Origin: Candidatus Hydrogenedentota bacterium
GTDB taxonomy: Bacteria; Hydrogenedentota; Hydrogenedentia; Hydrogenedentales; SLHB01
Reading direction: 5' to 3'
NCBI GenBank assembly: GCA_963745075.1
Contig: CAVUWV010000015.1
Location: 160,001 to 224,000 of the forward strand
Length of the DNA stretch: 64,000 nucleotides
Shown: piece after piece, positions 15,933 through 17,990 of the stretch
Position numbering within the stretch: position 1 is the first letter of the stretch
Layout: every line of letters begins with the position of its first letter
Made by a program: the position numbers and the translations under genes
The notes under the pieces: model-generated
What the model saw: only the letters and a program-made list of their open reading frames with translations
Database searches by the model: none
Told to the model about the DNA's origin: nothing

Positions 15933-16043
15933 CAACGAATTATAACCTTTCGCGTAATCGTCCTGCAGAAATGACTGCACCGGGATTCTCCGTATATGCT
16001 CCCGGGTCAACCGCCCCGAAGGGGCCAAAATATGTCAGCCCAG

Positions 16044-17730
16044 CGCGGCATAGCCGCAACCAAAAGTGAGGAGATGAATGGCGTTTCCCCTTTGCAGATA
16101 CAATAGGTATCCGCAGTGGTCTAACACGAGAAGGAGAAACGCCATGCTTGAGTTTATGCAGAAGTACCGGGATAAAGCCAGTTCGATTCTGAGCGGTTTT
16201 GATCGAATCGTCTTTCGAGGGCTTTTGCGGTCTATAGTCCATCCAGACGGCATGAAAAGGCACTTGTCGCGGTGTGACGTTCCCCGCCGCAACTTCGGAG
16301 CCCATGTGGAGGAGACGACCAAGAAACTGAAAAAGGCCTCGTTGGCTCAGGCTGAACATCTGGATAGACCGGTCATCTACGTGCAATCGAGTCAAACCCG
16401 TAAGGAGACTATCGCCAGACAGGTACTCGCGGAGAATCCCGTCGATTCCGGTTTGCTGTGCGTGCTTTCTTGTGTGGAGCCCTGCATGACCTACGAGATG
16501 TATCGCAATCGGGAGGCCAAGAAACTGGAACTCGTCTATCGTCTGCGTAAGTGTCTCCACTTGTATCATTACTACGTCGATCCTCTGTTCGGCTTCATGC
16601 ATGCCCGCATCCAAACCTGGTATCCCTTTCACGTCCAAGTCTGTGTGAATGGACGGGAATGGCTGGCTCGGCGAATGGATGCCGAAGGTTGCAAATACAT
16701 CCGCTACGAGAACAGTTTCCCGCATCTAGAGGACCCGGAGCGCGCCCAGCAATTGCTCGATGAACTGGTCCGTCTCAACTGGACCGAAACCCTTCACGAA
16801 ATCGCCGCGCGGTTGAATCCTGCGCATCAAGAGATCCTCGGTCCCTATGCCCGCTACTACTGGACCGCTCACCAAACCGAATGGGCCACGGACATCACGT
16901 TTACCTCGGCCCAAGACCTCCAAGATATCTATCCTCAACTTGTCTGGGGCGCCATCACCACCTTTTCCACACGGCATGTCATGCGCTTTTTGGGCAAACA
17001 ATTCCAACGCCACTTTGCCGGCGAAGTCCAGAGCCATTATCACGACCGTCTCGACGGCCTCTCCGTCAAACATGCCGTCAACAACAATTCCGTCAAGATG
17101 TATGACAAAGGGGCCCAAATCCTTCGCATCGAAACCACCATCAACAACCCCCACGACATCCCGGTCTACCGGCCCAAGGAAGGCGGTGACCCCAAAGACT
17201 TGGCTCACCGTTCCATGCGCAAAGGCGTAGCCGATCTCGAACGGCGCACGCAGGTCTCTCAACGCGCCAACGAACGCTACCTCGAAGCCCTGACACCATT
17301 CGATACCTCCACTCCCTTGGCACAACTCCTCGCCCCCGTCACCAAAAGGGTCACCAAAAAAGGAACGACCTATCGCGGCCTGCGGCCTTGGGCACACCAA
17401 GACCTCGAACTTCTGCAAACCATCAACAAACCCGAGTTTCTCATCGCAGGCTTCCGCAACAAGGACCTGTCCGCCATCCTTTATCCCAAGGATCAGGGCG
17501 ACCTCCGTGCCCGACGCGCCGCCTCCGGTCGCGTCTCCTATCGCCTACGGCTTCTCCGAGCCCACGGTCTTATTGCCAAAACATCACGCACCCGTCGCTA
17601 CCAAATCACCACCAAAGGAACTCAACTATGCGCAGCCATACTCATGGCCCAACACGCAACTATCCAACAACTTACCCCCAAGGCCGCTTAGACAAATGCG
17701 AAAGTTTTTTACGATGTTTGCGGTTAGGGA
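16044..17730 (+). mobile_element. Putative insertion element with Rep_trans-like transposase, inserted in a REP at CCCAG
   Basis: CCCAG on both sides (16039-16043, 17731-17735); excision restores a REP matching the intact neighbour; terminal hairpin GCGGCATAGCCGC; 8/9 subterminal IR TAGCCGCAA/TTGCGGTTA; single ORF opposite to the host operon. Confidence 0.85.
16144..17691 (+). CDS. Putative transposase (515 aa) with Rep_trans-like motifs and C-terminal winged helix
   Basis: AAGGAG RBS before ATG 16144; QTEWATD (244-250), KMYDK (Y320), LRIE (R328/E330); C-terminal RLRLLRAHGLIAKTSRTRRYQITTKG; fills the delimited element. Confidence 0.7.
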   Translation: MLEFMQKYRDKASSILSGFDRIVFRGLLRSIVHPDGMKRHLSRCDVPRRNFGAHVEETTKKLKKASLAQAEHLDRPVIYVQSSQTRKETIARQVLAENPVDSGLLCVLSCVEPCMTYEMYRNREAKKLELVYRLRKCLHLYHYYVDPLFGFMHARIQTWYPFHVQVCVNGREWLARRMDAEGCKYIRYENSFPHLEDPERAQQLLDELVRLNWTETLHEIAARLNPAHQEILGPYARYYWTAHQTEWATDITFTSAQDLQDIYPQLVWGAITTFSTRHVMRFLGKQFQRHFAGEVQSHYHDRLDGLSVKHAVNNNSVKMYDKGAQILRIETTINNPHDIPVYRPKEGGDPKDLAHRSMRKGVADLERRTQVSQRANERYLEALTPFDTSTPLAQLLAPVTKRVTKKGTTYRGLRPWAHQDLELLQTINKPEFLIAGFRNKDLSAILYPKDQGDLRARRAASGRVSYRLRLLRAHGLIAKTSRTRRYQITTKGTQLCAAILMAQHATIQQLTPKAA

Positions 17731-17990
17731 CCCAGGGCAACGCCCTGGGACTTTGCATGTCTCTTTGCGGAAAGCCCTGAAAGGGCGTGACAGAAATTCT
17801 GTCGTCTTGTCACGCCCTTTCAGGGCTTGTATTCCATTGCCATCCATGATCCCAGGGCGTAGCCCTGGGCTGTCATGTTGCGGCCCTTCGGGCCAAAATA
17901 GCGCTAAGAACGGCCTTCGCATCGCGTGGCTTACGTCGTGGCCCAGGCGCATGGCATCGACTGCCGCTGACACGTTCGCCTTCATTTCAG

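Follow-up and report, generated by a model that had tools for sequence, protein, structure and literature searches.

A mobile insertion sequence of a Candidatus Hydrogenedentota bacterium, inserted into REP-like repeats without target duplication and encoding a predicted Rep_trans-like tyrosine nuclease

The window analysed here, a stretch of 64,000 nucleotides (nt) of a Candidatus Hydrogenedentota bacterium (assembly GCA_963745075.1, contig CAVUWV010000015.1, positions 160,001 to 224,000), contains a mobile, multi-copy, single-gene insertion sequence (IS). Its target is C^CCAG, mostly at the foot of a hairpin of the Acido-Lenti-1 type. The left junction tetramer is inherited with the element and the right one belongs to the target; the two CCCAG found at its borders are therefore look-alikes and not a duplication. 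Its protein of 515 amino acids (aa) is predicted, from its modelled fold and the order of its invariant residues, to be a Rep_trans-like tyrosine nuclease, which on balance we think likely to move the element by single-strand nicking and rejoining at Y^NYRG, without duplication. The features on which the analysis rests are the following, in coordinates of the window (RBS, ribosome-binding site; REP, repetitive extragenic palindromic).

16016..16039: left flank, the left half of the interrupted REP-like unit (...GGGGCCAAAATATGTCAG + C), C16039 being the conserved base before the insertion point
16040..17731, plus strand: insertion sequence, 1,692 bp, its register taken from the family, with six copies and an empty allele
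16040..16043, plus strand: left-end tetramer CCAG (family NYAG), taken to be the first bases of the element itself
16045..16057, plus strand: left-end hairpin GCGGC-ATA-GCCGC, stem arms 16045-16049 and 16053-16057, a fold predicted on both strands
16058..16064, plus strand: AACCAAA box, directly 3' of the hairpin and also present in a distant Paraburkholderia homologue
16078..16145, plus strand: stem over the RBS and the start codon, arms 16078-16092 and 16131-16145, 15 nt, 93% complementary
16144..17691, plus strand: sole credible gene, encoding the 515-aa protein, with GAAGGAG 7 nt upstream of the ATG at 16144
17692..17731, plus strand: right end, non-coding, ending TTAGGGAC (17724-17731; family TTAGTAGT), from the family end alignment
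17731..17749: target hairpin CCCAGGGC-AAC-GCCCTGGG of the REP-like unit, a predicted fold
17732..17735, plus strand: right-junction tetramer CCAG (family NYRG, mostly ACAG), read as target DNA
17851..17895, plus strand: intact neighbouring REP-like unit, a paralogous empty site, matching Rfam RF01687 (Acido-Lenti-1) with 41.5 bits against a gathering score of 37

The genome (G000) holds six copies of the element, all identical over 1,697 bases including both CCCAG, and the flanks around them are unrelated. One of these otherwise identical copies (C14:72609-74153) has an in-frame TAG in its gene. In the window the CCCAG pentamers stand at 16039-16043 and 17731-17735, and the sequence that they enclose opens with CGCGGCATAGCCGCAACCAAAAG and closes with ...GTTTGCGGTTAGGGA; read on the minus strand, the element begins TCCCTAACCGCAAA after CTGGG and finishes ...TTGCGGCTATGCCGCG-CTGGG. 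The repeated pentamer lets the two boundaries slide jointly by up to 5 nt, so that 16039-17730 is equally possible from the window itself. An empty allele was found in the public run X1, where a contig of 151 nt joins 16038 to 17731 and skips exactly 1,692 nt; five letters at the joint fit either side, and the empty site carries a single CCCAG. The short side of this contig (23 nt) is exact and locus-specific, and the long side (128 nt) has one difference. The same run also joins the left end of the element to another flank (...CCTAATAA followed by CCCAG), and in run X2 the right end of a relative of about 97% identity, plus CCCAGGG, is joined to further flanks. In five of five genomes of the same genus the flanking gene pair is conserved and the orthologous intergenic region lacks the element; an exact empty site was not found in these five, their intergenic DNA being unrelated. 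Two metatranscriptome contigs (run X17) map to the 3' part of the gene (17289-17585), one per strand, in a run that may hold DNA.

The junctions were compared among relatives gathered through a whole-genome search, from one Candidatus Hydrogenedentota genome locus and from 80 metagenome loci. The scan comprised 74 loci, namely L064 and 73 of the 80 metagenome loci, after L071, L088, L116, L132, L137, L139 and L142 had been dropped for truncated or irregular gene matches; a left end was found in 66 loci, a right end in 66 and both in 60. The left tetramers (n = 66) are ACAG (44), ATAG (10), TTAG (5), CTAG (2), ACAA (2) and three singletons, and the right tetramers (n = 66) are ACAG (47), ATAG (9), GCAG (4), ACAA (2) and four singletons. 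The two are identical in 36 of the 60 two-ended loci and different in 24.

Multiple copies of one relative tell which tetramer belongs to the element. Genome G039 carries five identical copies, with 37% protein identity to the protein of the window, whose conservation extends from CCTAG-A-GCAGCC-GTT-GGCCGC-AACCAAAG to ...GGATAGTAGT, in flanks made of arrays of CACGGAA units. The left tetramer CTAG is constant in all five, and the right flank reads ACGGA in four copies and ACGAA in one, whose arrays read CACGAA; no flanking repeat surrounds any of the five. The G039 unit is rebuilt only with an insertion at C^ACGGA of an element CTAG...TAGT, and therefore there is no flanking repeat and the left tetramer is owned by the element. 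Likewise, in L129-131, whose flanks are CGCAGAGA arrays, the right GCAG lies inside the repeat unit and the left TTAG outside it, and the left TTAG of L121 is also outside its flanking repeat unit.

The register of the family, as read from these sequences, is flank-Y ^ (NYAG-C-hairpin-AACCAAA ... gene ... TTAGTAGT) ^ NYRG-flank, which places the element of the window at 16040-17731 with the target C^CCAG; that a fifth base is repeated arises by coincidence, the flanking C and the last base of TTAGGGAC being the same. The initial annotation had suggested that the repeated CCCAG may be a shared nick or termination motif rather than a target-site duplication of a staggered cut; that it is a motif shared by the junctions and no such duplication, the five G039 copies and the 24 differing loci bear out. 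The near-constant CTRG- or CTGG-like minus-strand core that it expected among homologous insertions was also recovered, as CTRN, with ACAG as right tetramer in 47 of 66 loci. In L072, L087 and L091 and at G000 C10:322533, different elements lie head to tail, and a single tetramer separates the right end of one from the hairpin of the next; this is the arrangement to be expected of an element whose own left junction mimics the target.

The site used in G000 is mostly a REP-like unit. An occupied unit is laid out ...GGCCC-GAA-GGGCC-nnAACATGACAG-CCCAGGGC-AAC-GCCCTGGG..., and ten uninterrupted units of this genome read ...AACATGACAG-CCCAGGGC...; the unit interrupted in the window comprises 16016-16039 and 17731-17775. 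The target hairpin occurs at 15 loci of G000, five occupied by the element and ten free, and the five REP-inserted copies share the same position and the same orientation. The sixth copy lies outside any REP (...GTCTAAA-CCCAG-GGGATG), and CCCAG forms the junction in six of six copies. RF01687, listed as a small RNA (Acido-Lenti-1 RNA), has ten matches in G000, five of them above the cut-off; the unit that matches it behaves here as a dispersed repeat and as a landing site of the element. Many relatives sit inside arrays of 8-10-nt units, each unit with the target motif, that extend on both sides of the element; examples are L068, L079, L110 and L140 (CACAGAG), the G039 copies (CACGGAA) and L129-131 (CGCAGAGA).

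The element has asymmetric ends, of which the one upstream of the gene carries a conserved hairpin and AACCAAA. Long terminal inverted repeats are absent, as the initial annotation had noted: the best end-to-end pair (16051-16062 with 17715-17726) has 12 nt at 83% and ranks 22nd of the 80 inverted pairs inside the element. The hairpin that it had pointed out at the left end proved real and conserved as a structure, all five positions of the stem being paired in 62 of 66 related loci, the loop occurring in 17 variants, and the longer 'loops' being an extra C-G pair (GCGGCC-NNN-GGCCGC). The spacer between the left tetramer and the hairpin is C in 65 of 66 loci. In a plasmid homologue of 29% identity a different stem, CCGG-ACGAG-CCGG, precedes AACCAAAC. 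AACCAAA served as the anchor for locating left ends, and its constancy there is partly by construction. The 9-bp subterminal inverted repeat (8/9) of the initial annotation did not hold up: 6 of 50 shuffles reach it, and it is not conserved, since in 50 of 52 elements (51 of the 60 two-ended loci and the window) the best subterminal 9-mer match is 6-7, against a shuffled mean of 6.4. The same annotation had predicted one-ended transposition with capture of DNA beyond the hairpin end; no read-through or capture was seen among the loci compared, where the left boundary is sharp, because the base preceding the left tetramer is C in 64 of 66.

Shorter elements share these ends. An element of about 320 bp resembling a miniature inverted-repeat transposable element (MITE-like; G000 C10:322218-322537) keeps both of them, left CCCAG-CGCGGCAAGGCCGC... 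and right ...GGCGGATAGGTAC, and about 40 nt of the right end are common to it and to the full element; it is unique in G000, where the right-end motif occurs in six full copies and in this one. It sits directly before a hairpin-headed repeat on C10. Solo left-end hairpins head unrelated short repeats seven times in G000. Five AT-rich repeats (AACCAAAT-yCGAAATyCGAAGCACGAAAT..., at C8:215371, C10:322539, C13:59247, C14:268640 and C29:8881) are headed by GCGGC-NNN-GCCGC with a loop that differs in each, three of the five being preceded by CCCAG and none having a right end; such hairpin-headed short repeats could be non-autonomous or one-ended derivatives. In L064 (432-496) and L089 (527-602), tandem arrays of 7-nt units stand just inside the left end, after AACCAAA (GGGTTTA x4.6, CGGGTAT x3.7, AGTGACA x4.4 and AGTCCAC x4.9). 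The copy in the window has none; in the relatives these arrays could be binding sites or products of slippage.

Non-coding DNA amounts to about 100 nt before the gene and about 40 nt after it. The stem that covers the gene's RBS and start codon has DNA fold z-scores of -4.7 and -5.9 and shows compensatory changes in 8 of 12 consensus pairs (16 sequences), and it is likely a translational control. The protein belongs to a very large family: of the 7,999 candidates that were scored, 7,876 clusters (90% identity) fall into it, and at 50% identity it has 5,907 representatives. Among the matches listed the source names are all 'hypothetical protein', and a Protein Atlas search returned unnamed clusters only. 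Members are typically of about 515 aa on contigs of about 1.7 kb, the pattern that multi-copy elements give in assemblies; one longer relative of 905 aa has neither a helicase match nor informative domains. The family is present in 18 of 135 genomes of the phylum (E up to 1e-60), with distant copies on plasmids of Paraburkholderia, Burkholderia, Rhodococcus and Mycobacterium. A full-length homologue of 29% identity on the Paraburkholderia phytofirmans plasmid pOLGA1 (L198:1492-3006) carries the annotation 'ArsR family transcriptional regulator', its C-terminal winged helix being the only part recognised.

By sequence, the 515-aa protein fits no known type of transposase, HUH, DDE and DEDD included. 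No Pfam, NCBIfam (E up to 1), PHROGs or PDB-sequence match was obtained beyond the C-terminal winged helix, and none to the catalytic domain appears among the families listed for 58 members (E up to 10), of which 21 have winged-helix Pfam matches. The AlphaFold model has a predicted local distance difference test (pLDDT) score of 92.9 for the whole protein and of 90.7 for residues 1-390. In this model, residues 1-387/390 form a double saddle like that of the TATA-binding protein (TBP), and residues 390-515 a winged helix of the MarR/ArsR type (4rs8, Z 9.1; MepR, Z 8.5). Among 48,161 solved chains only TBPs (Z 7.5, 180 residues aligned) and Rep_trans initiators match both lobes, the latter being represented by 4cwc (Z 7.0, 180 aligned, root-mean-square deviation (rmsd) 4.9, model 13-390 on chain 39-240) and 4cij (Z 6.9, 186 aligned, rmsd 4.5). 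With the whole model, 4cij ranked first by probability among the Foldseek matches listed (0.93, E 2.8e-3), and a search of BFVD matched Inoviridae Reps and viral TBPs.

The residues that are invariant in the family, D20 (GFDR), E246, K318-x-Y320-x-K322 and R328-x-E330, lie on strands of the sheet and are held even in members of 19-37% identity. An alignment of four plasmid Reps shows as invariant D46 (SFD), D142, R189-x-Y191-x-K193 and R212-x-E214, and the residues of the element's protein follow in the same order as these catalytic residues of Rep_trans. In Rep_trans, catalysis is by Y191 with R189 and K193, and the metal is held by D46, D142 and E214, according to two sources (PMC4797284; PMC13107129). 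The range of the structural alignment, with model residue 13 on chain residue 39, would place D20 at or near D46. This pattern of invariant residues raises the odds of a Rep_trans-like enzyme beyond what the modest fold scores give.

The likeness to the Rep_trans initiators (RepC and RepD of pT181-type plasmids, RepSTK1; PF02486) would lie in a double-lobed crescent or TBP-like sheet (Z 6.9-7.0 over 180-186 residues), in the order of motifs (a carboxylate on strand 1, a second carboxylate, basic-x-Tyr-x-Lys and Arg-x-Glu), and in action at a DNA site that adjoins a hairpin. There is, however, no sequence-profile match; the catalytic domain of Rep_trans has about 210 residues and that of the element's protein about 390, and where RepD has a helical DNA-binding domain the element's protein has a MarR/ArsR-type winged helix. 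Moreover, Rep_trans is found on a plasmid, a phage or a conjugative element, and here the gene is that of a 1.7-kb chromosomal insertion sequence. At the pT181 origin the nick is described as lying in the hairpin loop (PMC4797284). The nick would not be in the loop here, because the hairpin loop varies.

The same architecture is found in the Rep-Arvir initiators (DUF7845) of archaeal pleolipoviruses and plasmids, in which a MarR-like winged helix is joined to a catalytic domain of TBP fold; these initiators also have the same two BFVD neighbours (A0A2N9QVX7 and A0A345MNV4), a catalytic Tyr beside Lys/His, three carboxylates and a conserved hairpin by the gene, and their use of the Tyr has been shown by mutagenesis (PMC13107129). 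In contrast, DUF7845 is not among the families listed for the protein and the 58 members and, compared with these initiators, the element is bacterial, lacks a third C-terminal domain and is a multi-copy chromosomal insertion sequence, not a replicon.

As mobile DNA, the element compares with several known groups. IS200/IS605 elements (IS608, ISDra2) insert next to a fixed motif of 4-5 nt without duplication, have subterminal hairpins and restore their target exactly. The present element shares the fixed-motif insertion, the lack of duplication, a subterminal hairpin and the exact restoration, and has a target-like motif at its end; unlike them, it has no Y1 HUH TnpA (Y1_Tnp is unmatched), a conserved hairpin at one end only, and no replication orientation bias detected in G000 and G039. 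IS91/ISCR elements have asymmetric ends, make no duplication, use a target tetranucleotide that resembles one end and carry a hairpin end upstream of the transposase gene. All of this holds here, that is, no duplication, insertion beside a fixed tetranucleotide resembling one end, an upstream hairpin and asymmetric ends; the enzyme, however, is not an HUH Y2 (no Y2_Tnp match), and adjacent DNA was not seen to be read through or captured. REP-type repeats are known targets of the IS110/IS1111 group and of IS1397. The element likewise enters hairpin repeats of the REP type, always at the same position and with the same orientation (5/5), and unlike those it has no DEDD or DDE enzyme and no long non-coding region for a guide RNA.

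From this material a mechanism can be proposed that would work, by analogy, like that of IS200/IS605 or IS91 with an unrelated enzyme. The enzyme would recognise the NYAG/NYRG motif both at the two junctions of the element and in the target, and its winged helix would likely read the hairpin/AACCAAA end. Catalysis would be by Tyr320 in K318-x-Y320-x-K322, with a metal held by D20, E246 and E330. Nicking at the motifs of the left and right junctions would keep the 5' ends covalently on the enzyme; the ends of the element would then be joined into a circle with the junction TTAGGGAC^CCAG, and the rejoining of the flanks would restore the C|CCAG target exactly, i.e. C followed by CCAG. Integration would reverse these steps at a Y^NYRG site, of the kind that a REP hairpin often exposes. 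Such a mechanism would explain why the tetramers look alike and no duplication is made, why the empty allele is exact and the ends are asymmetric, and why neighbouring elements stand head to tail.

A different use of the same TBP scaffold would be a novel recombinase acting on a double-stranded circle, by site-specific recombination between the joined ends and a target that shares the NYRG core, in the manner of IS110/IS1111 or of an integrase. The similar tetramers on both sides of the junctions (36 of 60 identical), the strict target (CCCAG in 6/6), the use of REP-type targets as in IS110/IS1111, the head-to-tail abutment of different elements and the exact loss in the empty allele would all suit it. 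We nevertheless consider it unlikely. The protein has no DEDD, serine or tyrosine recombinase domain; about 100 plus 40 nt of non-coding DNA, the upstream part being mostly the RBS-occluding stem, leave little room for a guide RNA, and no Rfam RNA family was found inside the element. Above all, the cores in G039 differ outright (CTAG vs ACGG), which a staggered exchange within a shared core should not tolerate.

More improbable still is an ordinary cut-and-paste or copy-paste IS with a strongly preferred target and a true duplication of 4-5 bp, CCCAG in this case. The identical pentamers around all six copies and the identical tetramers of 36 of 60 related loci are what it would give, and it likewise predicts the single CCCAG of the empty allele. 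It is opposed by the five of five identical G039 copies without a flanking repeat, by TTAG vs GCAG in L129-131 and the differing tetramers of 24 of 60 loci, and by the lack of terminal inverted repeats and of a DDE domain. On the protein tree the left tetramer follows the lineage of the element, with 13 changes against at least 17 in 200 shuffles, but the right one clusters too (11 against at least 13), and therefore the tree cannot separate element from target. It is mainly G039 and L129-131 that weaken both the duplication and the recombination explanations.

That the element is itself an IS91/ISCR or Helitron-like member, moving by rolling-circle transposition with an HUH Y2 or Rep-helicase enzyme, has practically no chance despite the similar layout (a hairpin upstream of the gene, a motif common to that end and the target, no duplication), and the domain and fold tests refute it: no HUH, Y2_Tnp or helicase domain occurs in any of 58 members, the predicted fold is a TBP-like saddle, and the protein is a stand-alone one of about 515 aa, its one 905-aa form having no helicase domain. 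The IS91/Helitron-like character given to the element by the initial annotation may thus describe its mode of working and does not describe its family. Of the Helitron-type termini, the minus-strand 3' end hairpin-G-CTRN is family-wide, whereas the 5'-TC is restricted to the sub-lineage of the window, most relatives starting the minus strand with 5'-AC (ACTACTAA); the 515-aa protein also differs from that of Helitrons in having no Rep-helicase.

Several observations weigh against the single-strand mechanism by a Rep_trans-like nuclease. At the junctions, the 36 loci with identical tetramers cannot alone be told from a 4-bp duplication, and some of the 24 single-copy loci counted as 'different' could be copies that mutated with age. 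A conserved hairpin is lacking at the right end (fold z -1.8 and -2.5; family end alignments), and neither a circle junction nor a tandem joint was seen in the assembled contigs of 20 public runs. The element shows no consistent orientation relative to replication as judged by GC skew in G000 and G039: in G000 three clear copies agree, antisense on the G-rich strand, and three are ambiguous; in G039, where the skew, sampled in forty 20-kb pieces, turns at about 2.7 and 6 Mb, the copies point both ways on both replichores. With respect to the fold, a Z of about 7 is in the tool's range of common arrangements (<8), and TBP and Rep_trans score alike; no Foldseek E-value reaches significance, and the search with the domain alone is weaker (4cij, E 1.1e-2, probability 0.63). 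An hhalign comparison with four Rep_trans proteins aligned 11 columns only (GFDR with SFD) at a probability of 0.2%, and none of 58 members matches PF02486 (E up to 10). Motif order and alignment ranges, not a superposition of coordinates, are the basis of the residue equivalences, and this reading leaves two more invariant tyrosines, Y141 and Y143, unexplained. The homodimer prediction for residues 1-390 (score 0.01, mark 0.42) counts neither for nor against.

To our knowledge, the known classes of transposase are a handful, namely DDE, DEDD, HUH Y1 and Y2, serine, tyrosine and Cas1. A literature search, which left most subscription journals, ISfinder and supplements outside its reach, found no paper in which an insertion sequence carries a transposase of Rep_trans-like type or of TBP fold. 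The homes of Rep_trans given in PMC13107129 are plasmids, filamentous phages, conjugative elements and transposons, and archaeal viruses.

We give an even chance to the wider proposal that the family is a new class of prokaryotic transposase, in which a Rep_trans/TBP-fold tyrosine nuclease with a winged helix would drive thousands of small, hairpin-ended insertion sequences in bacteria of soil, sediment and groundwater, homing to NYRG in REP-like repeats without duplication. Such a class would have arisen convergently as a non-HUH counterpart of IS200/IS605, IS91 and Helitrons, and the archaeal Rep-Arvir initiators would have in it a bacterial sister. The short, near-fixed junction motif makes the mechanism directly testable with oligonucleotides. 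If the Rep_trans-like reading is right, non-HUH rolling-circle initiators have been recruited for transposition, a function is provided for thousands of metagenome genes whose very large protein family is without a Pfam or NCBIfam model for its catalytic part, and a compact, sequence-specific single-strand DNA integrase becomes available for study; part of the spread of REP-like repeats and of the adjacent short elements would also be explained.

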